DNA from: an uncultured bacterium
GTDB taxonomy: Bacteria; CSSED10-310; CAZUFC01
Reading direction: 5' to 3'
DNA length: 49,036 nt
NCBI GenBank assembly: GCA_964619725.1
Contig: CAZUFC010000062.1
Location: 1-49,036, forward strand
A program made the position numbers and the translations under genes. The notes under the pieces were generated by a model, which saw only the letters and a program-made list of their open reading frames with translations, was not told the origin of the DNA and did not search any database. Of the stretch, positions 15,172 to 46,971 are shown piece by piece (the first letter of the stretch is position 1; every line of letters starts with the position of its first letter).

Positions 15172-15936
15172 TGAAAAACCTCCTTGAAATGAAAGGGAAA
15201 AAAGCAAAAAAAATCAATGAATAAAACTTCAGTGATAGTGAAGTTTTATCAGCTCCCTTGCTTCATTCCGGTATACTTATATTGGATGCTGTAGTCAAAT
15301 CGCCGGCTGTTTTATCTTTACATGACGATAAAATTTCAGAACTGATCAAAAATGCCTCTTTTGCGGTTACAATTCTACAGAATATCTAATCACTTTGTTT
15401 CTATCCCGATTCCTGAACAAAATGACCTCAATGAAAAAACACCGTTGAGTTCGTCGCGCAGAAATTGTGTGACAGGAGAGGAATTTTGAAATGCCGGCAC
15501 ATTTTTTTTGCTTCTAAAAATGCAGCATTAAGAACACTTGCCGTCAAACTTTCGCTCAGACGAAACAACCGTTTTCGGGATGGTAATCTTTGGGAGCAAG
15601 GGTTTGCGAAGGGCTCTGACCCTCTCGCAAAGTATTGGAGCATCGAAATGTGCAACTATTGCTTCTGCTGAGCTCTGAGTGGGACGCTTTGAACGGTTCG
15701 GTTAATAAAGCGATATTGCCTTGTATGGGGCAGAAGCGTCAATGGCGGATATTTTTATCAAGGCTTTCATGCGGGTCGCTGAATCCGGCCAATTCTTCTG
15801 TTTAATTCTAAGACGTTCTGGACTTCCAGCCATATGCTCATCCGCCCATCCAATCATCTATTATTCCACCCGTTCATTCTTCCACGCCCCCATCTTTATA
15901 TTCTTCCCCGTCAACGCGCTTTAGGACGTGAATCTT

Positions 15937-23550: not shown

Positions 23551-23567
23551 TCGGCACGGCGTTTGCC
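23551..23567 (+). promoter_or_regulatory. sigma54 (-24/-12) promoter
   Basis: TCGGCACGGCGTTTGCC = GG-N10-GC, close to TGGCACG-N4-TTGC; AT-rich IHF-like AAACAAAAACTTA about 30 bp upstream; about 77 bp before the protease ATG. Confidence 0.55.
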
Positions 23568-23643
23568 CATGCATATACCGGGATTCGGCGACGGGGTCAG
23601 TTGCCGGAAATTATTAATCTTTTTTCTATGGAGGTTAGATGAA

Positions 23644-26600: not shown

Positions 26601-26739
26601 TTCCGACGGCGATTGCGACCTGTTCGTCCTCTCGCCCGGTGAAGATGCTTCCGGCGATCCCCCGGCTATAAAGGTGAATACTCTCTATGGAAGTTCTTCC
26701 GGTATGAAGACTATGGAGATGATACCCAGGACGTTCTAA
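23644..26739 (+). CDS. Secreted S8 subtilase with C-terminal FG-GAP (integrin-alpha-like) repeats
   Basis: GGAGG RBS then MKKLMRL signal peptide (start moved from 23563); VIDIEGG (Asp), DHGTAVIG (His), AAGNG, GTSSASP (Ser); repeated GDFNGDGRPDLAVG/GDIDGDGYDDLAVG. Confidence 0.9.
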   Translation: MKKLMRLNHIRQFVIAGVLVLLSVSAAFSGTAERLIAPEFSADELSGRFQAMGLNQSMDVRTYLIPRPVFPAPRFERITEDFAMHVLVLKFDEGTRVRLRDGFFVVEERSRDEEDVFRMDRLGLLSDEVINTVEEFNEIMLRSDAIIEVERHFERSGEELDFSRINGQNRVGRELADLNLYYTVYLNPELSEEEVLIALDHFNALPAVESCYPVPIPRNASLDAADRSKDGSKSTPDFTYGQHYKESAPNGIDADFASLHTGGEGSGVDVIDIEGGWNLDHEDLPSTFYKNGVNWGGDHGTAVIGIIRARDNSYGMTGILPHCRIGVGSVSNWHGPYALAAAIDNAADELEEGDVILIEQHLKGPDTGGTCTCNCSQYEYIAVEYWSNYYDSIAAATANGIIVVEAAGNGSVSLDDSAYDDRFDRTERDSGAIIVGAQDLSGFTLNGPACWTNYGSRVDVSGWGDQVWTLGYGDLHSGSGKDEYYTSDFGGTSSASPIVVGAVGAIQGYLYLHDRERLDPMTMRALLTQTGTGQEPSSKHIGPLPNIRNAIHELSRMSSVSGDFNGDGRPDLAVGNPWAEVDGDPGAGLVRVYQSDGGALSLYDYYEISQGSTDLDVWGSPEDNDCFGFALAAGNFDGDAYDDLAIGVPFEDWEAENEGFVIVLYGSSSGLNASDYVLVHQDNGINLNNSSEDNDLLGFSMSAGDIDGDGYDDLAVGSPGEGYNTTANTGMVHVAYGSSIGISSCCDKESRFYTSAHDNFMGRAVTVEDLDDDGYADLCIGIPGWDESDAEDVGHVIVYCGSSSGLDGTFDPVDGDILLLKSDDAIDMSSLRHSRMGEALAAHPAIGDEGPSLLFVGCPGYRDYLKWGAGAVLEVYNIDSPESGLLFCQQDSDSFEDMDDGVDEFDLVGSSLAAGDFDADGVCDLAIGHPGDGSDVDAGMVTILYGWAFMGVMAYDEQNFTQDDFMFETSEFGEMFGASLTAVDKNSDGDCDLFVLSPGEDASGDPPAIKVNTLYGSSSGMKTMEMIPRTF

Positions 26740-30291: not shown

Positions 30292-32418
30292 TTAACCGGA
30301 ATCTTCCGGTTTGAAAGCTGCTTCGATATTTGGATCGGTTACGGAAAAATTTTTCCCCTGGTACTGATAGCTGTGGGGTTCAAAGGTTGTTTTTATACCG
30401 TAATTCTTTTCGACGTATTTCAAGTACCGGCGGCAATTAGCTTTAAAATCTCCTCTTGATGTTTGATTGCGCAGGTCGCTTAGTCCGGGGTAGTTGAGGG
30501 ATATTTTTAGTTTGTTGCGCAGTCTTGCCGCCGGGCCGGCGGGGCCTTGTATGGATGTTATGCCTTCGCAGGAGAATATTTTTACGGTTTTTCCCTTTAT
30601 TTTGCCGCTTGAGAGCGACAGAAAGTCGTCCGGCATGGGGATGTACGGCTGCCAGGTCTGGAAATTATCGGAGTATCTTCTTTCTCCGGGGACTTCCGTT
30701 ATGCCGGTTTCGGCCAGGATGCGCGACGGCGCTCTGATGAGGCCGAACATACGCCTTCCTACTGAATGGAGATAGCCTTTTCTTTTATCAGGAGCCGGAT
30801 GTTTAATCTCGTGCCATATGCGCCATAACCTTTTGGTATAGAAATCACCCTTGTAGAATTTGTGTTTCCTGGTTCCCTTGGCCGCGTTCCATCCGAAATC
30901 ACGCATGCTGAAGTAAGCCAGGAAACGCCCCAGCAGAGTGTCAGAGGGCAGCATTTTAGAGGGTATTCTGATGATGCCGCCTTCATTCATGCTTTTCAGA
31001 TGCGGAGCGACATATTCATTAAAATCACGGAATCCCGGCAGGAAAGGAACGATAATGCGTTCACGGGTTTCCGCAGCCCAGGATTTTACTGAACTCGGCA
31101 TCTCTTGCCGGACGATCAATGCATCGATTGCGGACAGAATTTCCTGTTCGCTTTCACCGATTTCCCGGGATACTCCGGCGTTTCGTCTCAGTTCCGCCGC
31201 CTGCAGGACAGAATCGAGAGCAGCCCTGAGAACCAGGGGTTCCCGTTCGTTTCGGAGTATTCGTATCAGGAGATTCAGTATTTGTTTTTCCGATATATTC
31301 CTGAATTCGTTTTTCAGTATTTTTTCGACTATATTCGCTGATTCCAGCGCTGCTTTGGCCCTCACTTTGACGTTATTTTCAAAGGCAGTTCCGGCATCAG
31401 CCGTTTTTTCCAAAAGGGAAAGAGCCTGTTGAAGGTCGAATTTTGCGGCTGCTTTCATGCATGTCTGTCTGACCAGGTCGCTGGGGTCCGTTTCAGCCGT
31501 TTTTACGATCAATGCTGATGAACGATCCTTCTGACTGCATTCCATCAGGATTTCCAGAATGTCGTTCCTCAGGAACATATCGTCCGGACCGGCGTTCCTG
31601 GCGGCGTTTAGCAGGATATCTTCCGCATTCGAAAGAGCCCTGTCAATGTCTATAACGAAAAGGACTTTAAAGGCCGCCGCCCGCACCCATACGTTTTCGG
31701 CATCGTCCAGGGTCAGTTGTTTGATTAAATCCACGCTATCTGCAGTTAACAAGGAGAGTCCGTGTGATTTCGCCGCCGAATCTGCAATGACGAAAAAGCC
31801 CTGCAGGACGGCCAGCCTGTTCTGGAGCCGTTCCGTGAGAGCGAAATGATTTCTTAAAGTGTTTTCCAGGTCGATTTTATCGAGGAATGACTTACCTTCG
31901 GCGCTCTTTTGCACGTTCCGTATCAGAAGAGCGGCGGCTCCCCCTGCCAGAACAACCAGGAGTTCAATAAAGGCATCACGGCTGAAAAGCGCCTGTTTAC
32001 AGGATTCGGTTACGGTTTCCCAATCCGGCGTTTCCTTGAACTTCAAGCGAAAACGTTTTCCTTTAATCAGGCGCTGCTTCTGTTCGATGAAGTTAGCCGC
32101 TTCATTTTTCAATCTCCGGTCATTTTCGGTCTGAGCATATTTTTCTTTCAGGCTTTCAAATTTCTCAAGCAGTCTTTTCTTTTCGGCATCCTGCTGAGCG
32201 ATAAGCCTGCAGGTTGTTGAGGCTATGAACGCAAACTCATTACCGCTTCTGAATTCGGATTCGATCTTATTCTTTCCAGAAACAACATCCTGTTTCAGGA
32301 TTTTCAGGATGCGGTCAAGTTCTTTTTTGCGGATTATCTTTTGATGCCTTCGGAAGAATTCTTCGACTATTTTGGCGAAGGCTTGTTCGAGTTTATCTTT
32401 TTCAGGCGGAGATTTCAT
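30292..32418 (-). CDS. HEAT/ARM-like alpha-solenoid protein, last gene of the PgsC-containing operon
   Basis: ENVWVRAAAF, DPSDLVRQTCM, NNVKVRAKAAL, EPLVLRAAL HEAT-like motifs; C-terminal RLWRIWHEIKHPAPDKRKG...ETGITEVPGE...WQPYIP block; ATGA overlap with the upstream gene. Confidence 0.75.
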   Translation of the reverse strand: MKSPPEKDKLEQAFAKIVEEFFRRHQKIIRKKELDRILKILKQDVVSGKNKIESEFRSGNEFAFIASTTCRLIAQQDAEKKRLLEKFESLKEKYAQTENDRRLKNEAANFIEQKQRLIKGKRFRLKFKETPDWETVTESCKQALFSRDAFIELLVVLAGGAAALLIRNVQKSAEGKSFLDKIDLENTLRNHFALTERLQNRLAVLQGFFVIADSAAKSHGLSLLTADSVDLIKQLTLDDAENVWVRAAAFKVLFVIDIDRALSNAEDILLNAARNAGPDDMFLRNDILEILMECSQKDRSSALIVKTAETDPSDLVRQTCMKAAAKFDLQQALSLLEKTADAGTAFENNVKVRAKAALESANIVEKILKNEFRNISEKQILNLLIRILRNEREPLVLRAALDSVLQAAELRRNAGVSREIGESEQEILSAIDALIVRQEMPSSVKSWAAETRERIIVPFLPGFRDFNEYVAPHLKSMNEGGIIRIPSKMLPSDTLLGRFLAYFSMRDFGWNAAKGTRKHKFYKGDFYTKRLWRIWHEIKHPAPDKRKGYLHSVGRRMFGLIRAPSRILAETGITEVPGERRYSDNFQTWQPYIPMPDDFLSLSSGKIKGKTVKIFSCEGITSIQGPAGPAARLRNKLKISLNYPGLSDLRNQTSRGDFKANCRRYLKYVEKNYGIKTTFEPHSYQYQGKNFSVTDPNIEAAFKPEDSG

Positions 32419-35400
32419 TTTTCTTTTACTTGTGATGCGAGAATATTTTCGAAAAAGACAGAATAAGGATCATCGTCTCTGAACAGTCTCCCGGCGCTGA
32501 TCCGCCACGATATTCCGAACTGGAAAACGTTTGTTTTTGAGGAAAAATAATACCTGTTCTGAACATCGACTGCCAGGATATTTTTCAATTTAAGCCAGGG
32601 ATACCAGGTCAGCGACAGGGCGGCTCGTTTGGAATCTTTCTGTTTGAATCCGTCGTATTCCGAATAGCGCTGATGCTGATAATGAACGTCGGTGAAAAGA
32701 TTCCTGTATAACGCTCGCATTCCGGTCCTGTAACGGAAGGGCCCCAGTTTGCTCACTCCAGCGCGGGAACTTTGCCGCAATCCGGTCTCAAAATAGAAAT
32801 GAAGGTCGTTGAAGGGCATCCAGAGGAAGTCATGTTCGAGCAGTAATCCCTGTTTGTGAGTGTAGAATAATCTGCTGTAGAGTCTGGGATCGAGCGGTTC
32901 GGTAATTTCTTTCGCTTCTTCGGGCGACAATGAAGAGCGATTAAGGAATATGCCGGCGGTGGGGATCAGTCGAATCGCCGGAGAAGGTTCAAAAGAGCGT
33001 TTCGCCAGAGACTCGAAATAAACCGAGAACTGGTCGTCATCTTCGACTTTCTGCATGTGTCCTTTCAGGAATGCCTGAAAACGCAACCGGTAAAGATCGG
33101 AATTCAATGCGGCTCGATTGTACAAGCGAAACAGAGGCGAATAGTCTTCATTCATATTATAAGCGCCGAATTCGCTTTTGAGAAAGAAGCCTTTCCCCTC
33201 GAATCGTTTCAGGTATCGCGCTTCAATGCCCAATTGGGTCTGCTGATCGTCGCTGATGATGTCGAAGGAGTCCTCGTTCCAGGCCCTGTTGAGGAAGCTC
33301 ATGCCGATTTCCAGCGTTCCGCCTGCCTGATATTTCAACCCGGTATCGGCAGCATTCGGAAGCGCCGCAATGATTGAGGCATCGGATTTCGGAAGCGCTG
33401 CCGGCCTCTTTTCCTCATCCGTTGCCTCTCGCAAGACGTAGCTCTTCTGCCTGGTAATCCGTTTTTCCTCTTTTAATCCATATAATCGAACGCCCAGCGG
33501 AACATCTTCGTTTTCCGAAGTGATGCTGAGTTCATATATCTCTTCATAAGGCAACAGGATCAACGAGTTCCACGAATCGATGAAAGTCAGATTTCCCATA
33601 GCATCGAATCTGGTCCTGACGGGCAGCGAAAATTCCTTTTTGGTAACGTTGGATGTTTTTCTTCCTACAGCCTCAATGGTGAAGTTGTATTGGTGATTCT
33701 GAGGATTATGACCGGACATTTGCAGGTATTTTTCGTAGCTGTTGAAGGAGTCTTCATCGGCGCAGAACGGCATGCTTTCGATACGGAGCATTCCGGGTCC
33801 GAACACGACGGCTTTTATGGGTTTATCTTTTTTCGTAAGATGATACCGGAATTCACGATAGGGATAGAACGGGAACCACTGATCACCGCTTGCCGTCTGT
33901 TTTTCTGATTGAGGAGCGATTTGCCGATCCGTAAAAATGGAAATCCGAAGAGGCGCATCAGAATCTGTTTTATGAAGGAGGAGTTCCAGATCGTATTCTC
34001 CCCTGGAAAAAGGGGGCAGTTCATATTCGAGAAAGGCGCCGGGCGGGATTTCAACGGAAAAGCTTTTCTCATCGTTTACACGAATTTTCAGGACATAGGG
34101 TTGTTCGATATAAGCGACGGGTTCATGCCTGGACAGGGCGCTGAGCAGCAATTTCATGCGGAGGGTATCATCCGCGCCGAGTTTAAATTTAACGGGATTA
34201 TGGGGAAATAGGTAGATTGGTTTTCCATTGCTTGAGGGAATAAGCGCGTCGTCAAGGAGAAATGAAAGATAAATGGAGGGATCGTAGATGGTATTGATGT
34301 TTTCGAAACCTGGTTGAGAGGAGAGTCCGTTGATATGATGCCAGTCTGTCATGCCAATGGCGGCGCTTCTTCCGTCAAGAGCGTGACGGAGGTCCGGAAT
34401 ATTATCGAGTATGCGCTGGTATAGGGTTACTGAGCGAACAGCCCAATAATCCATGGTTTTCTGTTTGACGGTTTCCGCTTTAAAACGGCAGTATTCTGCG
34501 GCATCGAGGAATCGGGGAAGTCCGTCGAACCCCCTGATCTTTGAGGAGAAGACAAAAGAAACCGCCTCCCTGTTTTCGCTCAGTTCACTTAATATTTTGT
34601 AGTACAGGTTATCGCACCAGTCATTTTTGTGTTCATCCGGCAGATCGTCATAAATCGCCAGAATTCGCCTGGCTTCATCGGGTTGATTGAGAGACAGACT
34701 GCAATAAGCAGCGGTCAAAACGCTTTCAGAATATAATGCGTCGTTTGTTTCGAACAGCTCCGGGTTCAACGCCGGCGATTCGTCGGTTATTCTGCCGAAA
34801 CTCAAACGAGCCTGAGCCAGTCGCAGCGACCGCAAGGGACTCGCTTTCAAAGCGACAAAATGTTCTTCTGCCGCGGCATATAGTATGGAGGCGTCAATTC
34901 CACCCAGTAAAGGTTCGTGGTGAGAAGGCGACTGGATCATCGGCAGGACAGCGCCGTCGCCCATGAAAAACCTCATTTTTACCGTATGTGTTCCCGGTCC
35001 GATCGAATAATGAACCGTTTGACGCTCACCGGGTAAAATGCCTTCGATATCTTCATAATAAACTGTTAATGCAGGTTTAGAAACGGCTAAAGGTATTTCA
35101 CGGATGCGGGCCGGCGAATCAGCGGACTGATCGGTTATGATGAGTTTCGTGTATTTGATCAGCTCATTCGTTTCTTTCGGTCTGACGTGAGGTCTGACGT
35201 ATAATTTCAAGTCCGTGGGTCCCTGGAGGATCATTTCAAGGTTGTGCTGTTCATCGATGCTGTAATATTCGTAAGCGCCGGGATCATTTTTTACCCGTAA
35301 CTGAAGCGTCCCCCCGGAACATGATGCCTGATCGTCCGGTATTGAGGCATAGCGCGGATTCATGCTCTTGTAGAACCATTTTTCGTTAAAGCGGGCGGCC

Positions 35401-38400
35401 TGAAATAAAGTCTCTGCCGTAGCATAGGTAGGCGGGGAACTTATAAGTTCTTCAAAATTGAAATTACCTGTGCCGATTCTATCCAGGTCGTTTTTAAGAT
35501 ACAAAGCGCGCCGGACCGGCTCGATCTCTTCTGACGACTGCAGTTTTTCCAAAAGATCGGCGGCAGAATCGACCTTTCCCTGGCGGACCAGACAACAAGC
35601 CTTGTAATATCGCGAAAGATCGAAGAACTCAGAATGCGGCTCAATCGAATCAAGCCTTGCGAAAGCTTCTTTTTCATACCCAAGCCCCCATAAACATCGG
35701 CCCCTCTGATAATCAAAAAAATCGTCATTGGTGTGATCGAGTTTGCTCATCAGATTCAATGCATTTTCGTAACGCTTTGAATCTGTTAAATATGAAACCA
35801 TGTTCCGAATCGTGCGCCTGTCGCATATGCCCTGCTCCAGCAAACTCTGCGAAATTTCATAAAACGCGTCCTCGTTCCCGGAGCCGTATTCAGCTTCAGC
35901 TCTCGCCAGGCTGTGAAATCGATAAGCCAGACAATCCTTATCCCCAGGAGGCGTTATTGATTCTAAAATCTGGAGGGCCCGGTCGTGGAATCCAAGAATT
36001 GAAAAAATGAGTCCCCGGGTTGTTCTGATCAAGAGGGCTTCTGTTGAATCCAAATTGCCGGAGGATAAATGCTCCGTCGCTTTTCGCAACATTTGAACAT
36101 AATCTTCCGTTTGTTCGTTCAGAATCCACGGTTGATTCTTCCCAGGCGACGCTGATTCACGCAACTCCCATATACCGCTGATGAATTTTTCGATTTCATC
36201 AGAATGATCGAAATTAATGACGCTTTCTGCCGTTTTTGATTCAAAGCAATCGAAAAAAGGAAAAACCTCGTTTATTCTTTTAAGTCGATACTGCCCATGA
36301 ATGAAAGCAGTGCAGCCGTTGTTTTCATCGCTCCATATTCTTAACTTCCGGGCACTCTCCGGAATATTCAGCAGGAATCCGGACGATGTTTTAACCGGCG
36401 AATCGCACGGGTCGTTCAGAATATAAACGGCAGAAGGTTCCGCATCATCAAAAGCAAAGTTTATCCTCATTTTTTTAAGTGAATCATCATATTTGCCGGG
36501 TATCGGCAGCCAATGGAGCAGCCCCCGGAAAAGCAGACCGGAATTAAGATCGTTAATCCAATATTCCAGCGCCTCTTCACGATTTGCAGGCAGTTCAATA
36601 TATCGACGGATTTTGCGGAATGCCGGCGCTTCCTCCTGGCCGCCGGCATCTGTTTCAGCTTTAACCGGCAGATTAACGTAAATTCCAGCATCGGGCGAAG
36701 AGGGGGACAATTCGCAACGGAATACCGCAATTGAGTGCGGGAAGGAGGTTTCGATTTCAGCCGAACGGTTCATATCGACTGCGCTCATATCCAGGGGAAA
36801 TATTCTGTAGAGTCTGCCGTCCGTATAAATTTTCAGCTCGGTTTTTTCAGTATTTTCAGCAGAAACAAAAAATGATACGGGGACTGACCTGAAGTTTGAA
36901 GCGGGAATCATACCGGCCGGATCAACAGCATAGTCGACGCCGGGTACGATCCGGCGATAGAGAAATTCCGAGCGATAATTATCTATCAGTTCAGCGGTTT
37001 CGGCATCGTCGTCGTCATCGAAGACTGATTTGCCGAATTCATAAGGGTCTGCCGTCGTCAATGTTTTCAGGCGCGTTTTTCTTCCGGGCGACTCAGCGCT
37101 TGCCCAGTAGGCGTTATTTCGCCAGAATCTCATGTATCCCAGTCCAGCTTCCCTGTCGTAGGGATTTATACGGAGGACTTTACGATAGTAACTCAGCGCT
37201 TCACAGTTCCGTCCGTGCATAAAGCGGCTGTCTTCCAGCAGTCCGGCAAGCATCAGCAATGCCTCCGCATCGCCGGGAAAATGCATGAGGAGTTTTTTCA
37301 GCAAATTTTCAGCGGTCAGAAAAGCCTGTTGATCCATTTCCGATTGCGCCCATTCTTTTATTATGCGTTTGTAGAGGAAGAGGGACGGCGGACCTGTTGC
37401 ATCGATCTGCTCATTGCCGGAAAATAGCGTTTCCAGGTGTTCGGCGGCTTCCTCATAAAAACGATTCGATTCCGGCAAACGACCCGCTTTACGGCTGATG
37501 CGGGCTTCCTGACGCAATATCCACGCCCTGACGGTCTGAATGGTCGACTGGTCAAAATATTCTTTGAACGAATCGAATATATTCCTCACGTTATTAAAAA
37601 AATTCTGTGCGGCAGTGAAATCATCCCCGTATTCTGAAGCGGCGTAACCCTTGAGAATTTCAGCGACGGCAGCATCCCTGACGGTCAGATTCTCAGAATT
37701 CACGGCATCGATTGCAGCCAGAAAACGAGCCCGCTGTTTTTGTATCGGTATATCCTTTTCAGTGGCAAATTCCGGCGTGAATTCCAGTTCAACATTAACG
37801 AGCAATTCATGGTCCGATATAAGGGTGATGACATGTCGACCGGGACCGACCGGCAGGGAACGGGTCCTTTTGCGTCCGATCAGCCTGTCGTTTTCGTTCC
37901 TGAGCATTTCACAACAGTCATCCCTGCCCAGGAGACCTTTCGCAATCCTTTTGAGACTGAATTTCGGATAGCCGTAAAGCGAAACGGAAGAGGCTTCCTG
38001 CGTCAGTTTTTCCGGTATGGTTTCAAAACTTAAGCGTTCGCTAAAACCGCCGTTGACGAGAACGTCGAGGGTATATGACTGATGAATCGTTTCGGGCAGA
38101 TCGTCATAAAGAAGCCGGGTGTTGATGTTGAGGATGCCTGCCCGATCAAGGAAAAAAGTGGCGGTTCGGTTCATTCGACAGTAAGGGTCGTCATCATTTT
38201 GCACATGCGTCGATTCGGTCCCGGCATTCTCTTTTTTGCCGTCAATACTTTCCGGTTTAAGCAGATGTTCTTCCGTCATTCCGGACTTGCTTGTTTTCAG
38301 GAAGGAAAGTTCGGAAAAGTATATGAGTCGTCGATAGGCATCAGCGGCATGCTTCACGTCAGGATCAGTTATCAGGGATATATCGAAGGGAAGATATGAA

Positions 38401-39050
38401 AGTATCTTTTCCTGAAATTGTAGTATGGCCGGATCATGAACTGCCGGCAGGTCAGGAAAAGAAGCAGACTCGTTTTCATCAAACCATTCCCTGGCTTTTT
38501 TTTCGATCAATGGCCAACGATTTTCCCGGTTAAGTGTGACCTCTCGGCTTATCCGAACAGTAATCTCTTCTGATGGATCGCCCTCGAAACTCAGCGCCGC
38601 TTCAGCGTCAAATTCATACGGCGAACGGGCATACCAGGCGCCTGAATGTTCGATAAGAGGCAGAGGAACCAGGGCTCTTGAATAGGATGAAACGTCATCG
38701 CCGGCATCCATGTAAACCAGGTAGGCTTTTACTCGATTTGCCGCATCCGGCGCTATGTCGTTGGATTCCAGAATATCGATCCGCAGAAGAGTTCCTCTTT
38801 CCAGGTTGAAAAAAATGACGTCGGCGTCCGCAAGATCGAATACGCCCTCGCCGGACTGAAGACCGGTTTCTTCGAACGCTGCTTTTACAGGCGCCCATCG
38901 AAACCGGTGAAACTGACTCATGGACGACAACAGGAAAGATGCTTCGTCACCCGTATTGCCGAACGCAGTTGAAAAACATACGACATTGAATAGAATAGAA
39001 ATGCAGAAAAATAAAACGCTGCAGGCACAATGAACGGTGTGTTTATTCAT
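32415..39050 (-). CDS. 2211-aa exported TPR protein with predicted C-terminal outer-membrane beta-barrel
   Basis: Signal peptide; TPR-like helices (about aa 500-650 and 1000-1190); beta-rich domains; last about 290 aa show alternating amphipathic strands (QLGIEARY, LHFYFETGL, AALSLTWY, FQFGISWRI); 8-bp overlap with the upstream gene. Confidence 0.75.
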   Translation of the reverse strand: MNKHTVHCACSVLFFCISILFNVVCFSTAFGNTGDEASFLLSSMSQFHRFRWAPVKAAFEETGLQSGEGVFDLADADVIFFNLERGTLLRIDILESNDIAPDAANRVKAYLVYMDAGDDVSSYSRALVPLPLIEHSGAWYARSPYEFDAEAALSFEGDPSEEITVRISREVTLNRENRWPLIEKKAREWFDENESASFPDLPAVHDPAILQFQEKILSYLPFDISLITDPDVKHAADAYRRLIYFSELSFLKTSKSGMTEEHLLKPESIDGKKENAGTESTHVQNDDDPYCRMNRTATFFLDRAGILNINTRLLYDDLPETIHQSYTLDVLVNGGFSERLSFETIPEKLTQEASSVSLYGYPKFSLKRIAKGLLGRDDCCEMLRNENDRLIGRKRTRSLPVGPGRHVITLISDHELLVNVELEFTPEFATEKDIPIQKQRARFLAAIDAVNSENLTVRDAAVAEILKGYAASEYGDDFTAAQNFFNNVRNIFDSFKEYFDQSTIQTVRAWILRQEARISRKAGRLPESNRFYEEAAEHLETLFSGNEQIDATGPPSLFLYKRIIKEWAQSEMDQQAFLTAENLLKKLLMHFPGDAEALLMLAGLLEDSRFMHGRNCEALSYYRKVLRINPYDREAGLGYMRFWRNNAYWASAESPGRKTRLKTLTTADPYEFGKSVFDDDDDAETAELIDNYRSEFLYRRIVPGVDYAVDPAGMIPASNFRSVPVSFFVSAENTEKTELKIYTDGRLYRIFPLDMSAVDMNRSAEIETSFPHSIAVFRCELSPSSPDAGIYVNLPVKAETDAGGQEEAPAFRKIRRYIELPANREEALEYWINDLNSGLLFRGLLHWLPIPGKYDDSLKKMRINFAFDDAEPSAVYILNDPCDSPVKTSSGFLLNIPESARKLRIWSDENNGCTAFIHGQYRLKRINEVFPFFDCFESKTAESVINFDHSDEIEKFISGIWELRESASPGKNQPWILNEQTEDYVQMLRKATEHLSSGNLDSTEALLIRTTRGLIFSILGFHDRALQILESITPPGDKDCLAYRFHSLARAEAEYGSGNEDAFYEISQSLLEQGICDRRTIRNMVSYLTDSKRYENALNLMSKLDHTNDDFFDYQRGRCLWGLGYEKEAFARLDSIEPHSEFFDLSRYYKACCLVRQGKVDSAADLLEKLQSSEEIEPVRRALYLKNDLDRIGTGNFNFEELISSPPTYATAETLFQAARFNEKWFYKSMNPRYASIPDDQASCSGGTLQLRVKNDPGAYEYYSIDEQHNLEMILQGPTDLKLYVRPHVRPKETNELIKYTKLIITDQSADSPARIREIPLAVSKPALTVYYEDIEGILPGERQTVHYSIGPGTHTVKMRFFMGDGAVLPMIQSPSHHEPLLGGIDASILYAAAEEHFVALKASPLRSLRLAQARLSFGRITDESPALNPELFETNDALYSESVLTAAYCSLSLNQPDEARRILAIYDDLPDEHKNDWCDNLYYKILSELSENREAVSFVFSSKIRGFDGLPRFLDAAEYCRFKAETVKQKTMDYWAVRSVTLYQRILDNIPDLRHALDGRSAAIGMTDWHHINGLSSQPGFENINTIYDPSIYLSFLLDDALIPSSNGKPIYLFPHNPVKFKLGADDTLRMKLLLSALSRHEPVAYIEQPYVLKIRVNDEKSFSVEIPPGAFLEYELPPFSRGEYDLELLLHKTDSDAPLRISIFTDRQIAPQSEKQTASGDQWFPFYPYREFRYHLTKKDKPIKAVVFGPGMLRIESMPFCADEDSFNSYEKYLQMSGHNPQNHQYNFTIEAVGRKTSNVTKKEFSLPVRTRFDAMGNLTFIDSWNSLILLPYEEIYELSITSENEDVPLGVRLYGLKEEKRITRQKSYVLREATDEEKRPAALPKSDASIIAALPNAADTGLKYQAGGTLEIGMSFLNRAWNEDSFDIISDDQQTQLGIEARYLKRFEGKGFFLKSEFGAYNMNEDYSPLFRLYNRAALNSDLYRLRFQAFLKGHMQKVEDDDQFSVYFESLAKRSFEPSPAIRLIPTAGIFLNRSSLSPEEAKEITEPLDPRLYSRLFYTHKQGLLLEHDFLWMPFNDLHFYFETGLRQSSRAGVSKLGPFRYRTGMRALYRNLFTDVHYQHQRYSEYDGFKQKDSKRAALSLTWYPWLKLKNILAVDVQNRYYFSSKTNVFQFGISWRISAGRLFRDDDPYSVFFENILASQVKEK

Positions 39051-40102: not shown

Positions 40103-42490
40103 TTAATAAAACATGAGAGTTTCTTCCCTGGGTTCCTCCTGAAGGGAGAAGAGGCGTAAGTAGACTTTTTCGCCTTTTTCCAGAGACAGTATGAATTTAA
40201 TTTCGCCGCAGGGCATATCTTCGAAGAGGGGAAAGATGCAATTGACCGGCTCCAGCCATTTTTCCGAAGAACCGTCTGAAAAATCGATAATATCAGACAG
40301 GGGCAACCGGCCGGTATATATCCGAAATGTTCTTACCAGGGATGTTTTTCGAGGATAAGGCTTACCCGGTTCCATGTTTCTTTCGTTCAGGCATTGGATT
40401 CTAATTACCGCAAAATCATCTGCTGCCTGGTCTCCGTTCGAACCTTCGGACGGGTTGGAATAGTTAGGACGCCGACCTTGACCTGAGTAACCGGTCGACC
40501 CTGTTGAAAAGTAAACCATGGCGTTTAAACTGACTACGCCGTCGTTCGATTTAATCATTTTCACCCGGGAAGCAACGGCGTCAGTCAATTCATACAGAGT
40601 CCTCATGCTCCATCTTTCCGGTTCGGTTTTCCTGACGGGTTCCTGATTAATGAAGAACCGGTCGGCCGGATTCCCTGATTCGATCAGAACTTTGTGTTCT
40701 CCGGCGTCAACGTTTTCCAGGCGCCTTCTGTCGATCAGAGACAGGGGCCGCATGCTCATTTGAGAATCATCCAGCCATATGGAAATATCCGGTTTCTGCG
40801 AGGTTTGATCGAGGATATACAGGAGTGAAACGTCCACAAACCTGCTGGAAGGGAACCTGGAATCGCAGAACGTGAATCTCTGGGGACTCCCGGGTGTTAA
40901 TTCATAGTAATCATAGACTTTCCATTTGAATTTCGGAGCCGATAGACCAGGGACCGCGCCTTTAAGCAACTCAGGCAGGGCAGGCTTGTTGGGTTCGAGA
41001 ATCAACCGTGCTGATTCGTAATTTTCCGGGATATGAACCGCGCTTTCCTGCGACTGGATACGCTTATACCACTGCTTTACGGTTTTATCGCTTAAATAGG
41101 GAATATCAAGCATCCCTTTCGGGAGTTTTATTTCCGTCAGTCTGTTCTGCCGGTTCAAGGCATCGTAATTGGCGGGTCGAAAATAAAACCAGGTCCGGCT
41201 GCTTTCATCCTTCATTTTCAATTCCGCCTGTTCCTGCTCCGGTTCCGGTAAAATTCGCTGAACCGCCGGCTTCTGTTCGGGAGATGCGTAAAAAGCCAGG
41301 TGTAACGGCTGTCCGGCCCAGAACCGGACCTCTTCCGCATCACGAGGCGCCTTTAAATGAAAAGATGAGGGAAGGCCGGCATATTCGCTGCCGTTCTCCG
41401 GTTCTCCGATGACGGCATAGGGAGAAAGCGACGTAACGCCTTGGTAGGTATAGACGTTTTGATCTGAAGAACCGGTAAATTCATAATGGAGCCGGTAACT
41501 TAATTCAGCCTCCTGGGGACGGGAACCTGCATCCGTTTCATTCTCAAAGGTCGGCCGGCATACTGTCTTGAATTCAAAAGCGCCGCCGCCGTAAATACGG
41601 GGAACTGCTATGACTATGGGTTCCTTTCCATCCTTCGGCGCTGTCCGATAATAAACCGTCCTGTCATATTCGACAGGCGCTGTTTCTTGCGAAGGCTTCT
41701 CTTCTTTCACCTCCGCCATGGAAATATCGTTCAGAAACAACGTCTGGGGAAAATAATCCTCGCCGGCATCCCCATAAGCCGGTATCTGCTCCCATGTATA
41801 ATCGCGCGACCGCTTTTTTTCCCTTTTCGTTACGAAATCCAGGCCGTAAAGGGTCGCTGATGAGACATCCTCCTTATCGATTATATGCGAGCCTATTTGA
41901 GGTTTAAACTGTCCGTATGTTCTCATGTTGACCCGGCTGAACGCGGTTACTGCAGCCGTATGATTTTCGGGCGAGTGAAGGGATATCGCCAGAAAACCGT
42001 CAAAATTATTCATATCCGATAAGGTTAACATGGAAACTCTGCCGTCTGCAGGGACTTTATCGCCGTTCAGGTAAAATACGCTTTCCAGGTAAACGTTTTT
42101 TTCAGGATCGTGTATCCTCGTCTTACGTGTTTTTTCCCATAAAGTCATCTCCCTGACAGGTTCCATATCTTTGTTTAAATATTGAACCTTTAAAGCATAT
42201 TTATACGTCTGTTCTTCGTCGGCGGTTTCGGACGGCAGGTTCAGGTAGGAAACGAGCTTTATTTTGGGGTCCTGGGGCGTTACGCGGAGAAGCAGTCTGT
42301 CCTCGCTGCCGACCAGGTAACCGATTCTGCGTTCTGATTTCTGCAGTTTGAGGGCTGTTTTACGCCATTGTTTATTGGTAACGATATATCCCATCCGATA
42401 GCTGAGGAGAAAAGCAAGAATCAGGAGGACCGCACCGAGGACTGCAGCGGTTATCAGCGGTTTAAGGGATCGTTTTCGTGAAAGCATCAT
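40103..42490 (-). CDS. Membrane-anchored periplasmic beta-rich protein of unknown function
   Basis: Basic N-terminus plus a single TM (aa about 12-31), long soluble remainder; 12-bp and 4-bp gaps to neighbours. Confidence 0.75.
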   Translation of the reverse strand: MMLSRKRSLKPLITAAVLGAVLLILAFLLSYRMGYIVTNKQWRKTALKLQKSERRIGYLVGSEDRLLLRVTPQDPKIKLVSYLNLPSETADEEQTYKYALKVQYLNKDMEPVREMTLWEKTRKTRIHDPEKNVYLESVFYLNGDKVPADGRVSMLTLSDMNNFDGFLAISLHSPENHTAAVTAFSRVNMRTYGQFKPQIGSHIIDKEDVSSATLYGLDFVTKREKKRSRDYTWEQIPAYGDAGEDYFPQTLFLNDISMAEVKEEKPSQETAPVEYDRTVYYRTAPKDGKEPIVIAVPRIYGGGAFEFKTVCRPTFENETDAGSRPQEAELSYRLHYEFTGSSDQNVYTYQGVTSLSPYAVIGEPENGSEYAGLPSSFHLKAPRDAEEVRFWAGQPLHLAFYASPEQKPAVQRILPEPEQEQAELKMKDESSRTWFYFRPANYDALNRQNRLTEIKLPKGMLDIPYLSDKTVKQWYKRIQSQESAVHIPENYESARLILEPNKPALPELLKGAVPGLSAPKFKWKVYDYYELTPGSPQRFTFCDSRFPSSRFVDVSLLYILDQTSQKPDISIWLDDSQMSMRPLSLIDRRRLENVDAGEHKVLIESGNPADRFFINQEPVRKTEPERWSMRTLYELTDAVASRVKMIKSNDGVVSLNAMVYFSTGSTGYSGQGRRPNYSNPSEGSNGDQAADDFAVIRIQCLNERNMEPGKPYPRKTSLVRTFRIYTGRLPLSDIIDFSDGSSEKWLEPVNCIFPLFEDMPCGEIKFILSLEKGEKVYLRLFSLQEEPREETLMFY

Positions 42491-42502: not shown

Positions 42503-45500
42503 TTATCCGGCGACCAGGGCGGCAGCGCTGCCGGCGATGAATTCGGTTACAGTTTTTCTCCAGTCGTCAGAATCCGGCTGAACGAATAGAACATCATCGG
42601 CGGCGGGTTCAAGAGAAAACAAGTACAAAGGGGCTTCATTCCGGTTCGGCGCATACATTATGAGGTATTCGTTCACCGAATATCTGTCCAGAATGACTTC
42701 GATTTCATATTGCTCATCACGGGCGTATTGTATGACAGCGGCCTGATGAACGACGTTAGATGTTTTTCCATATTGCCGTAATTCACCAATAATGAAGTCG
42801 ACGTCAAGTTCCAGGGATTCAAGCGCTTCCTTGCGGGACAGGGAAGGGAGCTTCTGGCGTCTTTTGGTCGACATGAGTTTTTCATTGATTATATCATGGA
42901 GGAAGGCTTTGTTGTATTCAATATTCATGACGGACCAGGGCTTTTCCTCAATGGGCTGGAGCAGTGGATTGGAGAAGAGCCGTCTGAAATCCTTCGACAG
43001 CCAGATGACTATGAATTCGCCCATGTTGAAAGTTTCCGAGTAATGTTGTTGAGCGTTGCCCAGGCTGGTGAGTTCGACTGTCTGTTCGGAAGGCGTTGCG
43101 GTATCGGCTTCATAGCCGTATTCAGATAATGCCTTGCGGACGAAGGCGAGTTGGTTATCCGCATCGGTTTCCTCATAATCGTAGAGCGTGGTCAGCAGAA
43201 TATCCTGATGGTATTGTCTTTCTTCATCGGAGTATCCCCGTATTTGAACCGCGGTCACCGGTTTGAAATTAACGTATTCTCGTTGAACTGCCTGGTGAAC
43301 GAGTTGAAAAACCGTCTGCAGATTGGCGGGATCGATGACGTTGAAATCATCCGAGCCGGGACGTCGGCTGGTTCCTGAAACGCTTAAGGCGCATGCATCG
43401 AAAAGCCTGAACAGATGGATGCCTGTTTTTAAAGTATTCAATTCCGTGACGGGAGCGGGAATTTCAACCATTACCGGGTTTGCCTGGTCCAGGGTGAAAG
43501 CATATATGCCCCTGAATTTGACGGGAGTATCCTCAATCAGGATAAGGTATTTCTTCGTTGAGCCCGGATCGTAAATCACCTCTGTTCTATATCCGCAATG
43601 TTCCGCAAAAAATGATAGAACGTCCAGGAAGGAGGAGTCCGGAGCGACGTTCTGCTTTTGCTTTCTGATGAGCGGCTGCAGGACCGCGCTGTCGAGATGA
43701 AAAAGCTCTCCCAGGCTCGGAGGCTGGTAATTCAATGTTTCGATCCCGGAGGCGATGTGATCGTCCTGTGCCTTAAGGAGATATTCGGCCAGTGAGGCTT
43801 CCCTGAATGTCCAGGCAGGGATGCGGCCAGTTTCCATGGCGAGCCGGTTCAATATTTCAAAGGCATTGCGTATCTCCAGAGTATAGAAACCTTTATGGCT
43901 GTTTTTTCTGTAGAGATTGTACCTCGTTTTTTCAGTTTCGTTTACCTTCAGCGGATCGATAACCGTTTTTAAGAATTCGTCGTTTAGGAGGGAATTATCT
44001 TTTTCGATCCAGAGTCTGTTTCGACGCGCATCGCCATAGATTTGCACGACGTCGCATGTGCGGCTGAATTCCCTGTGTGCGAGATCGAAGGCGTTCTGTC
44101 TGTTCAACAGTATATCCGCAGGATCGGGACGGGAGATGTCTTCGGTTCCCGGAATGAGCAGCGCTGCGGCATCCAGGTTCATGAAGAGCGATAAGGCGAC
44201 TGCCAGGTAATGTTTGCCGCTTTCCGGGTTCATGAATTCCACGACGAGATTGTTTTCAGCCTGCGGATTGAACAGGTATAATCCCCACCCATGAAGGGCG
44301 CCCGGACGTTCGCCCGCTTCCCGCAGCAGATAAAAAGTATTGTCCGCAGCCGTATCACGTATCTGTAAAAACTGGTATTGAACATTCTCCAGTTGTTTCG
44401 GCAAATCGCTGAGTAATGCATACCGGTGACGGCCGGGGGCCTTCATTGCCTGATGAATGGCATGAAAAATCGAATGAAAACTGTCCTGCTCCGTTGCGAA
44501 AAGCCTGTCGGATTCCTGCCGGCCGACCATACCAGGCAAACGTATCGAATCGATCATAATGCGGCGATAAATGTCATCGGAAATTTCCCGATATTCGATT
44601 CGATCCGCATATCCGGCCGAACCGTAAGTCCAGCTCGCCGGCAGAACAGTCGATAGAACAAAGGATATCAAGGCTCCTAAAACCGCTGCGGCGAAGGAAG
44701 TATGCAATATGATCCGTGAAACCCTGACGAATGAATGAGAACGATGTATCTCAAGCGCGATCAACGTGGGCAGAATATAGGCGAACCCATATAAATCCGT
44801 GGCTTTGAAACCAGGATAATTGAAGGAAACGTAGAATCCCAGGATAAACTTTAATGCTGTCCCGATGGCGAAGAAAAAAAGAAGAAGCCGGGGACCTTCC
44901 ATGGTGACAGCGCGAAAAGGACGCGAATTCAATATTATTCGTCCGATGATATAGATGAGAGCGGCCTCGATTAACGTAGTCAATATTTTCAAGGGCGTAA
45001 ACCAGGCTATGCCCAGCAGGGCCGGAACAAGTATGCCCCGCGTCGTCCATCCGAATTCTTCTTTATAACGGTGAGCCAGAAAAGCGCCGATCAGTAACAC
45101 GATGTAATACCGGGCGCTCTCCGAAAAAGCCGTCGCCATGCTTTCGTAGAGCAGTTCAAATTTGCTGATGGTGAAATTCGTGTAAGGTATAAGGATATAA
45201 TTGACGAAAAGACAAGTTAAGGTAATGTTGATGGATATGGGAATCAGGCCGCGCCGGAGTCCCGAACGCCAGAACAGGTTCGCTGTCAGGGGAACGATAA
45301 CCAATCCGATGCTGTGCAGCTCGTTTCTGAAGTCGACAGCAACCGGCAGATGACGGCTCAAGACAGCGGAAAACAAAGGCAACAGCGGCCCTTCAAATAG
45401 AATCTTAACGCCGATGCTGAGCATTAGGATAGTCAAAAAAGCATCCTGGCCGAAAAAACGGCTCCATATTTTGAACCGGCTGAGTCCGTCGGAAAGAATG

Positions 45501-45724
45501 CGCATCAGAAAATAACTGATGAAAGCCTCCACGATGATGATGAATGCGCTTATGGGCTTAACCAGGATGATAGGCGCCAGGTATCCCGGCACGATAAGGC
45601 CGCCGAAAGCCCATCCCAGGGTCTCAGAAAAGAACACCGAAAAAAACAGGCCGATAAATACAGGCGGAATGACGGACGACGACAAGCCGCTGTCCGGAAA
45701 TATGTGCCATCCTATTTCTTTCAT
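42503..45724 (-). CDS. Tandem PgsC/CapC-domain membrane protein fused to degenerate hydrolase-like repeats
   Basis: GLFFSVFFSETLGWAFGGLIVPGYLA...SIGLVIVPLTANLFWRSG resembles PgsC (GVLLSLIFAEKTGIVPAGLVVPGYLG...GIGIIVPGLIANTIQKQG); second copy FGWTTRGILVPALLG...GFAYILPTLIA; soluble C-terminal two-thirds paralogous to the 351-aa protein. Confidence 0.8.
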   Translation of the reverse strand: MKEIGWHIFPDSGLSSSVIPPVFIGLFFSVFFSETLGWAFGGLIVPGYLAPIILVKPISAFIIIVEAFISYFLMRILSDGLSRFKIWSRFFGQDAFLTILMLSIGVKILFEGPLLPLFSAVLSRHLPVAVDFRNELHSIGLVIVPLTANLFWRSGLRRGLIPISINITLTCLFVNYILIPYTNFTISKFELLYESMATAFSESARYYIVLLIGAFLAHRYKEEFGWTTRGILVPALLGIAWFTPLKILTTLIEAALIYIIGRIILNSRPFRAVTMEGPRLLLFFFAIGTALKFILGFYVSFNYPGFKATDLYGFAYILPTLIALEIHRSHSFVRVSRIILHTSFAAAVLGALISFVLSTVLPASWTYGSAGYADRIEYREISDDIYRRIMIDSIRLPGMVGRQESDRLFATEQDSFHSIFHAIHQAMKAPGRHRYALLSDLPKQLENVQYQFLQIRDTAADNTFYLLREAGERPGALHGWGLYLFNPQAENNLVVEFMNPESGKHYLAVALSLFMNLDAAALLIPGTEDISRPDPADILLNRQNAFDLAHREFSRTCDVVQIYGDARRNRLWIEKDNSLLNDEFLKTVIDPLKVNETEKTRYNLYRKNSHKGFYTLEIRNAFEILNRLAMETGRIPAWTFREASLAEYLLKAQDDHIASGIETLNYQPPSLGELFHLDSAVLQPLIRKQKQNVAPDSSFLDVLSFFAEHCGYRTEVIYDPGSTKKYLILIEDTPVKFRGIYAFTLDQANPVMVEIPAPVTELNTLKTGIHLFRLFDACALSVSGTSRRPGSDDFNVIDPANLQTVFQLVHQAVQREYVNFKPVTAVQIRGYSDEERQYHQDILLTTLYDYEETDADNQLAFVRKALSEYGYEADTATPSEQTVELTSLGNAQQHYSETFNMGEFIVIWLSKDFRRLFSNPLLQPIEEKPWSVMNIEYNKAFLHDIINEKLMSTKRRQKLPSLSRKEALESLELDVDFIIGELRQYGKTSNVVHQAAVIQYARDEQYEIEVILDRYSVNEYLIMYAPNRNEAPLYLFSLEPAADDVLFVQPDSDDWRKTVTEFIAGSAAALVAG

Positions 45725-46349: not shown

Positions 46350-46511
46350 TTATTTCGTATTGGTTTTGCTTGATTTCACGGGTTCAGCTTCAGCCAATTT
46401 CAAACATAACCGATTCAGCTCCGAGACGAGTTTCAATCGCCGCAATATGGCTTCTGGACTCATATCGGGTTTGTTTTCCCACCTTTCGAATTTCTGATCA
46501 GCGTTTTTCAT
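46350..46511 (-). CDS. 53-aa partner of the nucleotidyltransferase (not in ORF track)
   Basis: Manual translation MKNADQKFERWENKPDMSPEAILRRLKLVSELNRLCLKLAEAEPVKSSKTNTK*; overlaps the NTase stop by 14 bp; amphipathic DMSPEAI.RRL..VSEL..LC helix. Confidence 0.65.
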   Translation of the reverse strand: MKNADQKFERWENKPDMSPEAILRRLKLVSELNRLCLKLAEAEPVKSSKTNTK

Positions 46512-46971
46512 CTTCATTTCTCTGGTTCAGTTTTTCCAGGTCCGCCAGGTCCTGCAATCTGCCGGAGAGTTTTTTCATTTTTTTTAACCCCTCAACAGAA
46601 ACCGATGATAACTCGTAATCGCCTGCTATATAAGTCTCCCGTTTTTCCCAAACATCCTTTAGAACCGGGGAGAGAAGAACGAAATCGAGCGTAGAAATTT
46701 CCTCTCCGATTATTTTTGATACGCGATAGACACGGGTTTCCGATTTTTTGCCCTCATGGAATTTAATTATGCCGGCTCTTATCTTGAATCCTTGCGTATC
46801 CGCCAGGTTAAGAATGCGTTTCAGGTCTTTTTCCCGAATAAGAATGTCGATATCCTGCGTAGCCCTGGGACAGCCGTGAAGGGCAAGCGCCAGGTCGCCG
46901 CAGAGGGCATACGGAATCCTGTTATCGTTTAATATCGTCGCTATGGTCTGTAACTCTTCGTGAATTTTCAT
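46498..46971 (-). CDS. Minimal nucleotidyltransferase (pol-beta superfamily, DUF6036/AbiEii-like)
   Basis: YALCGDLALALHGCPRATQDIDIL (G-x...DxD) and KKLSGRLQDLADL (R..D..D) motifs. Confidence 0.8.
   Translation of the reverse strand: MKIHEELQTIATILNDNRIPYALCGDLALALHGCPRATQDIDILIREKDLKRILNLADTQGFKIRAGIIKFHEGKKSETRVYRVSKIIGEEISTLDFVLLSPVLKDVWEKRETYIAGDYELSSVSVEGLKKMKKLSGRLQDLADLEKLNQRNEDEKR

Follow-up and report, generated by a model that had tools for sequence, protein, structure and literature searches.

Degenerate hydrolase-like repeats fused to a duplicated CapC-family membrane module in a conserved bacterial operon

The fusion gene and its membrane part

The window analysed here is the whole 49,036-nt stretch of contig CAZUFC010000062.1 (assembly GCA_964619725.1), from an uncultured bacterium of the CSSED10-310 lineage, and all positions are given in its numbering. 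The interval 42503-44500, to which an earlier note had drawn attention, is the 3' two-thirds of a 1073-aa open reading frame (ORF) on the minus strand (45724..42503). This gene (P0001) encodes a fusion protein composed of two CapC-type membrane modules and a soluble region, in which a hydrolase domain recurs in tandem with loss of its putative catalytic residues, and homologues are encoded in 133 genome stretches. Four more minus-strand genes follow. They encode a 795-aa protein with an N-terminal membrane anchor (40103..42490), a 351-aa putative zinc hydrolase of the PghP/M14 type (P0002; 39043..40098), whose residue numbers are used for the live enzyme below, a 2211-aa protein with TPR repeats (32415..39050) and a 708-aa protein that ends the run (30292..32418). 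Since the five ORFs are tightly spaced on one strand, separated by 12 and then 4 nt and, further along the run, overlapping by 8 and 4 nt (the last between the start of the 708-aa gene and the preceding stop), the run looks like one operon. The interval and the gene order of the earlier note, with the 351-aa protein encoded two genes downstream of the fusion, proved correct.

The first ~370 residues of the fusion matched the Pfam CapC family (PF14102) in two stretches (132.1 bits against a cut-off of 27, E 1.8e-38), the best of which covers residues 24-158. Comparison of the two halves with hhalign revealed that the membrane part is duplicated within the chain, as residues 22-173 (module 1; 45206..45661, minus strand) aligned with residues 210-348 (module 2, containing the second Pfam stretch; 44681..45097) at 95.4% probability and E 1.9e-8. 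The NCBIfam equivalog model of PgsC, TIGR04011, was not reached by the fusion (71.1 bits against a cut-off of 96.45). The label PgsC, which the earlier note had used, thus holds as a duplicated CapC-family module and falls short at the level of the PgsC equivalog. A paper on the 'lipocone', followed as a possible lead on CapC, was set aside, its subject being the 'CapCone' families. Pfam recognised nothing in the ~700 residues of the fusion beyond the CapC part, nor in the 795-aa and 351-aa proteins.

Twelve hydrophobic segments were assigned manually, by eye, in the membrane part. Across 69 aligned fusion proteins, the loops at residues 78-94, 153-159, 219-230, 267-279 and 326-336 are rich in Lys and Arg with few acidic residues, and the loops in between show the reverse. 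According to the positive-inside rule, this pattern would place the last loop in the cytoplasm and the soluble region in the periplasm, and we infer from this 12-segment model that the degenerate hydrolase region lies on the periplasmic side. The placement is in line with the hydrophobic anchors at the N-termini of the 795-aa and 351-aa proteins, and with the natural occurrence of 795-like proteins fused to a live hydrolase domain. The N-terminus of the 351-aa protein is basic and then hydrophobic, which fits a signal peptide or a membrane anchor.

The fused repeats and their live paralogue

Comparison of the soluble region with the 351-aa protein revealed that the two are related. In BLASTP, the 351-aa protein aligned with repeat 2 within fusion residues 380-1073 (E 2e-7, 22% identity, 277 columns). 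Profiles were compared by hhalign, using an alignment of the 351-aa protein and P0003 (A1) and one of three fusion proteins (A2), and matched at 96.4% probability (E 1.3e-9, 250 columns). When the alignments were sliced, A1 matched repeat 1 at 95.3% (E 2.3e-8) and repeat 2 at 97.1% (E 5.8e-11), and the two repeats (slices 385-650 and 651-935) matched each other at 98.8% (E 5.5e-17). Repeat 1 spans residues ~402-650 (43775..44521, minus strand) and is recognised by the hidden Markov model (HMM) of the 351 family at residues 410-564 (independent E-value, iE, 2.7e-8). Repeat 2, at residues 665-916 (42977..43732, minus strand), is full length and is recognised at iE 3.9e-18. On 69 fusion proteins, the same HMM recognised 41 repeat-1 and 56 repeat-2 domains (iE<=0.01).

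The AlphaFold2 (AF2) model of the soluble region, built from 69 sequences, reached a predicted local distance difference test score (pLDDT) of 85.9 and a predicted template modelling score (pTM) of 0.88, and in Foldseek it matched 3a9l and 21dc at probability 1.0, including over repeat 2. Matches of this model to M17 aminopeptidases were disregarded, as their root mean square deviation was above 22 Å. Chance similarity was rejected in view of the E-values, the family-wide HMM matches and the agreement of two independent models on the same PDB folds. The paralogy with the 351-aa protein and the two repeats that the earlier note had read in the soluble region are thus borne out by both pairwise and profile comparison. 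The extra fragment that it had described, a truncated third copy at residues ~964-1073 (42506..42835, minus strand), is supported by the model, in which it runs through the domain's initial eight secondary-structure elements (H H E E E E H E), comprising the N-terminal subdomain and the first strand-helix-strand of the hydrolase core, before the chain ends; its sequence relationship is weaker, with hhalign probabilities of 68% for repeat 1 (E 4.7e-5), 31% for repeat 2 and 0.4% for A1.

The putative metal and catalytic residues have been lost from the fused copies, as first proposed. In the window, the 351-family HMM places N499, G503 and Y563 of repeat 1, and A757, E761 and R829 of repeat 2, in the columns of H159, D163 and H242, and W908 of repeat 2 in the column of the catalytic E322, with R914 kept. 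In a MAFFT alignment of the 69 soluble regions, counted in P0002 numbering, the H159 column of repeat 2 contains Arg in 36 proteins, Ala in 26 and His in three, and the H242 column contains Arg in 49, Gln in 13 and His in two. At E322, Trp (56) and Tyr (11) have replaced Glu, which occurs in none, the D163 column is Glu in 58 and Gln in 11, and the R328 column is Arg in 61 and Lys in five. In repeat 1, the first His column is occupied by Ala, Pro or Arg, and the second by Arg in 43/69; the C-terminal half of the window's own repeat 1 diverges from the family. No fused domain aligned by the 351-family HMM in the 69 fusions has both histidines. Neither in the window nor in the 69 homologues do the fused copies have the site residues of an intact zinc site, so the pseudo-enzyme reading stands. 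Repeat 2 retains the Arg six residues past the catalytic position, which is equivalent to Arg171 of the poly-gamma-glutamate (PGA) hydrolase PghL, and, among the cleft residues, also Glu, Thr/Ser, Asp and Gln. The conserved replacements and the kept carboxylate-anchoring Arg suggest that the pocket of repeat 2 may still bind an acidic ligand. As domains that are homologous to the hydrolase, predicted to fold, conserved, and devoid of the catalytic set in 69 proteins from several phyla, the fused repeats are very probably ancient and conserved pseudo-enzymes.

The live paralogue was examined with an alignment of 133 relatives (A3), from which 17 of the 150 listed representatives had been dropped by eye for length or fusion. 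Its AlphaFold model with A3 reached pLDDT 89.6 and pTM 0.84. The top Foldseek match in the PDB was 21dc, the PGA hydrolase of phage PM1 (E 3.9e-5, template modelling (TM) score by target 0.54), and further matches included 5onj (PghL with bound PGA, TM by target 0.56) and 3a9l (PghP, 0.54), these three at probability 1.0, as well as M14 carboxypeptidases, the N-formylglutamate-amidohydrolase-like Atu2144, and CCP5. Local alignments of P0002 to PM1 PghP land exactly on the hallmark motifs: QAPHAFTD corresponds to VAPHAGGIE at the first zinc motif, QIHGF to SYHGY at the second, and HLELSYEFR to QLELSTAQR around the catalytic Glu and the Arg. According to the report on PghL, zinc is bound by His41, Glu46 and His102, Glu165 acts as the catalytic residue and corresponds to Glu270 of carboxypeptidase A, and Arg171 anchors the PGA carboxylate, its mutation to Ser abolishing the cleavage of gamma-LD-PGA (PMC6506827). 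Within the 351 family, H159, R189, D213, H242, N304, E322 and R328 are present in 133/133 relatives and D163 in 131/133, and the window enzyme has all of them. The assignment of the 351-aa protein as a PghP/M14-like zinc hydrolase, with an intact His/Asp/His and Glu set, is supported by this predicted fold, an open α/β sheet as in zinc carboxypeptidases, and by the residue pattern.

Weaker leads agreed with this assignment. The nearest named clusters in a language-model atlas were PF05908 (0.83) and FGase (0.82), and PF05908 matched 11 of the 133 relatives weakly, with a best E of 0.0011. Searches of PDB sequences with P0002 and with the A3 profile returned nothing relevant. A subdomain of two helices and a β-hairpin, absent from PghP, precedes the hydrolase domain (P0002 ~54-145), and the stub at fusion residues ~964-1073 consists mostly of this subdomain. 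Foldseek alignments of P0002 to pro-carboxypeptidases span 359-362 columns, and a role of the N-terminal subdomain resembling that of a pro-segment is conceivable.

Distribution and conservation of the operon

When species-representative genomes were scanned with the fusion alignment, 133 stretches that encode a homologue were identified, and 80 of these were kept as loci. The fusion occurs in Gammaproteobacteria (Marinobacter, Pseudoalteromonas, Zhongshania and three Legionella species), Massilia, Planctomycetota, Desulfobacterota, Myxococcota and CSSED10-310. An exhaustive HMM scan built on P0002 and P0003 recovered 2133 cluster representatives of the hydrolase family at E<=1e-3, 1269 of them at E<=1e-10. 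Word-indexed protein search badly under-reported both families, giving a single relative for P0002, two for the fusion, and seven when a profile was used. In the NCBI records the fusions are named 'poly-gamma-glutamate biosynthesis protein PgsC/CapC' and two of the partners 'hypothetical protein', and one relative of the 351 family carries the UniRef name 'N-formylglutamate amidohydrolase'. No description of the fusion or of the operon was found in the literature searched, in which coverage of subscription journals was thin. The architecture is un-annotated and widespread.

To place the two kinds of domain, a tree was built with FastTree from 99 domains of the 37 loci that have both gene types. 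A branch with support 100 sets all 37 standalone enzymes apart, and repeats 1 and 2 are for the most part separated from each other, with several long branches in the tree. Given this support, the split between enzyme and pseudo-enzyme predates the spread of the operon across phyla. A recent local duplication of the window copies was rejected for the same reason, and, on this phylogeny, the paralogy of the fused copies and the live enzyme is ancient.

The genes also remain together. By tblastn, a 351-type gene lies downstream of the fusion on the same strand in 47/80 loci. When the ORFs were clustered by BLAST, fusion and 351-type proteins fell into a single cluster, with members of one or the other type in 61 loci. 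Further clusters comprise 795-like proteins (58 loci), a protein of ~850-900 aa (56), one of ~1700 aa (35) and a receiver protein (20). The ~850-900-aa neighbour contains a CHASE2 domain and, weakly, a kinase ATPase domain. Within L002-L080, the CHASE2/kinase-like and small receiver genes are in most loci located just upstream of the fusion, with the sensor on the opposite strand in 14; neither protein is encoded in the window. The high-GC (guanine plus cytosine) Sorangium loci (L059, L063, L066, L067, L069, L071, L073, L075, L077 and L080) yielded giant overlapping ORFs with the longest-ORF caller, and their gene boundaries and the presence of a 351-type gene are unreliable.

The 795-aa protein matched nothing in Pfam, NCBIfam or PDB sequences. 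In P0095, P0117 and P0134 (~1100-1200 aa), an N-terminal part that is 795-like, an assignment made from reading the sequences alone, is joined to a live 351-type domain (HMM matches at 983-1202, 895-1089 and 946-1140, respectively). The 2211-aa protein has a signal-peptide-like N-terminus and TPR repeats (TPR_19, E 1.8e-9), and is a candidate outer-membrane component. Its C-terminus has similarity in six loci (L001, L051, L021, L010, L009 and L005), its C-terminal 452 aa found nothing relevant among PDB sequences, and a resemblance to outer-membrane barrels comes from the language-model atlas only, as a weak lead (0.88-0.90). The 708-aa protein, which has a weak HEAT_2 match, gave tblastn matches in 20 loci, downstream of the fusion in 19 and upstream in L028. 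A conserved envelope operon, consisting of the fusion, an anchored protein of ~800 aa, the live hydrolase, a giant TPR protein and a protein of ~700 aa, thus recurs across phyla.

Some loci show further features. In Marinobacter similis (L028, 9974-15256), the fusion gene is split into ORFs of 472 and 598 aa, and the 795-like gene is likewise broken up, into ORFs of 296 and 403 aa, perhaps as a result of frameshifts or because the operon is decaying in this strain. Members of an M20 peptidase family were found in 7/80 loci, namely at L074:2641-3822, where Pfam identified the family, and in six others, and a separate M20-type ORF adjoins a TonB-dependent receptor upstream in Zhongshania (L043:5576-7033). 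These M20 genes may point to catabolism of peptides or glutamate nearby. P0037, a 1359-aa protein, has Cys-rich repeats and, among them, two intact hydrolase domains (QAPH and QLHGF motifs). Judged by eye, it resembles a secreted protein from another lineage, and the live domain would accordingly exist outside the operon as well. In the window, a 157-aa nucleotidyltransferase-like ORF is located upstream of the fusion (46498-46971). The region 880-29913 is occupied by functions of a surface-polymer type, namely two GT2 glycosyltransferases, a sulfotransferase, a PMT_2-type membrane protein, a B12-radical SAM enzyme, an ABC-2 exporter pair, a 1598-aa β-helix protein (10411-15207) and an S8 peptidase with FG-GAP repeats (23563-26739).

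Possible roles of the repeats and comparison with known systems

We propose that the 1073-aa protein is an inner-membrane protein, in which a duplicated CapC module with ~12 transmembrane segments carries two dead hydrolase copies and a truncated third. One or two non-cutting clefts would thereby be displayed at the periplasmic face of the doubled module, where they would bind, but could not cut, the same acidic substrate of a gamma-glutamyl type that the live enzyme cleaves. The dead repeats may hold this material, or pass it on, on the outer side of the CapC module, the live 351-aa paralogue would trim or release what is held, and the 795-aa and TPR giant proteins would complete the envelope assembly. 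The role as a polymer-binding guide, which the earlier note had also suggested, is a tentative proposal that we place appreciably below an even chance, although the anatomy of the pseudo-enzymes and the guide mechanism, judged as one claim, come out slightly on the credible side.

Several observations weigh against this proposal. The most serious is the missing PgsB: neither the 21 window proteins scanned nor 47 neighbour proteins (25 from six loci and 22 that are mostly cluster representatives, the remainder of the genomes not having been searched) included a PgsB/Mur-ligase-type or ATP-grasp enzyme. As no PgsB-type ligase was recognised nearby, PGA is a candidate substrate at most, and this is the main weakness of a reading in terms of PGA. 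The relation of P0002 to PghP is seen at the level of fold and motifs alone, since neither PF05908 nor any other Pfam family matched P0002 at E<=1, and hhalign of its family against PM1 PghP aligned 27 columns at 11.6% probability, which is not significant. Where PghP has the recognition segment of His78, Thr80 and Ser81, the consensus of the 351 family has a conserved NTxHR segment, and the PghP segment appears to have no obvious counterpart. The topology depends on the manual assignment of the transmembrane segments. Finally, most cleft residues are gone from the window's repeat 1 (G503, Y506), which leaves no more than one repeat with the look of a binder in this protein, and the closest relative, from a metagenome-assembled genome of candidate division CSSED10-310 (L001:142-2562; 806 aa, 35% identity), has just one full dead repeat and a stub.

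The same substrate question can be posed independently of the role of the repeats. The substrate may be another gamma-glutamyl or acidic amide, such as the stem peptides of the cell wall, or a polymer of a different kind, and this alternative, which could be combined with any role, comes close to an even chance. The lack of a recognised PgsB among the proteins scanned, the score of the CapC module below the equivalog cut-off and the apparent non-conservation of the recognition segment all favour it, as do the M14 and N-formylglutamate-amidohydrolase-like structures that match nearly as well as PghP, and the UniRef name of one relative. On the other hand, the three best structural matches are PGA hydrolases, the Arg equivalent to PghL Arg171 is invariant in the 351 family, and CapC modules are not known from any context other than PGA synthesis (PMC4497714).

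With respect to the role itself, the dead domains could be regulators or docking sites that position, activate or restrain the live paralogue and bind no polymer, much as degenerate LytM factors regulate cell-wall amidases. Such a role, which would account for the joint inheritance of enzyme and pseudo-enzyme in one operon across phyla, gains from P0095, P0117 and P0134, where the fusion of the live domain to the 795-like partner makes the enzyme appear tethered to the same assembly; we nevertheless regard it as rather unlikely, since the conserved replacements in the former active site (Arg, Arg and Trp, with the kept Arg) point more to a ligand pocket than to a protein interface. A complex prediction for the soluble region with the mature 351-aa protein (residues 50-351) scored 0.00 and, run without controls, counts neither for nor against binding. 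The former active site also bears on whether the repeats are mere structure, a periplasmic stalk or platform that connects the membrane module with the 795-aa protein and the outer-membrane proteins and whose old cleft is free of ligand. The number of repeats varies, from one and a stub in L001 to two and a stub elsewhere, repeat 1 of the window is strongly degenerate, and the stub is unable to form a cleft, all of which would fit a plain stalk. A spacer would not, however, be expected to keep the former active-site columns of repeat 2 among the best conserved (Glu/Gln in 69/69, Trp/Tyr in 67/69 and Arg/Lys in 66/69), which renders this explanation improbable. That the fused domains are still enzymes using a different, metal-free chemistry is hardly credible: the replacing residues are conserved, and one of the two histidines is kept in 3/69 and 2/69 homologues, but both occur together in no HMM-aligned fused domain, the catalytic Glu is absent from 69/69 in the MAFFT alignment, and we know of no precedent for metal-free chemistry in this fold.

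The operon might encode a previously unrecognised envelope-spanning machine of bacteria with an outer membrane, which would export, anchor or remodel a gamma-glutamyl-type polyamide with no adjacent PgsB. The duplicated CapC module would be the membrane conduit, the dead repeats would clamp the chain as it emerges without cutting it, and its length or release would be set by the live paralogue, all under the control, in most genomes, of the CHASE2 sensor kinase and the receiver. This wider picture is speculative, and we consider it doubtful as a whole.

PGA biology has been worked out mainly in Bacillus, and the role of PgsC/CapC is poorly understood. Here, the CapC module is tied by fusion and operon to a substrate-type domain and a live hydrolase, in at least 133 species-level genomes that include the culturable Marinobacter, Pseudoalteromonas, Zhongshania and Massilia. 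Proteins labelled only 'PgsC/CapC' thereby gain a pseudo-enzyme part of about 690 un-annotated residues, and the hydrolase family so defined, with more than 2000 cluster representatives, has no model in Pfam. The ligand of the dead domains and the substrate of the live enzyme would provide a direct handle on what passes the CapC module.

Among known systems, the membrane part resembles PgsC/CapC of the PGA synthase PgsBCA(E), as PF14102 is matched nearly full length, twice, in proteins that NCBI labels 'PgsC/CapC'. It differs in that the module is duplicated in one chain, fused to ~690 soluble residues, below the TIGR04011 cut-off and unaccompanied by PgsB or PgsA, in bacteria with an outer membrane and an operon with a TPR giant. 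The 351-aa protein finds its best structural matches in PghP and PghL (YndL) of phage and Bacillus, which belong to PF05908 (TM by target 0.54-0.56). Its family has APH followed by an acidic residue, HG, LELS and an Arg six residues past the Glu, motifs that correspond to the zinc ligands, catalytic Glu and PGA-anchoring Arg in the PghL study cited above (PMC6506827). In contrast to PghP and PghL, the family shows no significant sequence match to them, is longer by the N-terminal helix/hairpin subdomain and a signal or anchor, has an Asp four residues after the His (H+4) in place of the Glu found five residues after it (H+5) in PM1 PghP, and appears to lack the His-x-Thr-Ser recognition segment, and the fused copies lack any zinc site.

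In its general layout, the operon recalls the synthase-dependent export of exopolymers by the cellulose (Bcs), poly-N-acetylglucosamine (Pga) and alginate (Alg) systems, which likewise combine an inner-membrane module, periplasmic partners including a polymer hydrolase, and a large TPR-bearing outer component. Here, however, no polymerase was recognised among the proteins scanned, the outer-membrane barrel is a weak atlas lead, and the membrane module and hydrolase belong to polyamide rather than glycan families, with no sequence relation found. The dead repeats themselves have parallels in the degenerate LytM factors EnvC and NlpD and in the inactive M14-like proteins CPX and AEBP1, in which the metal ligands are lost, the fold and the surrounding cleft are conserved, and each dead protein is tied to the process where a live hydrolase acts. 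The copies described here differ in belonging to another fold family, and in being arranged in tandem and fused to a polytopic membrane module.

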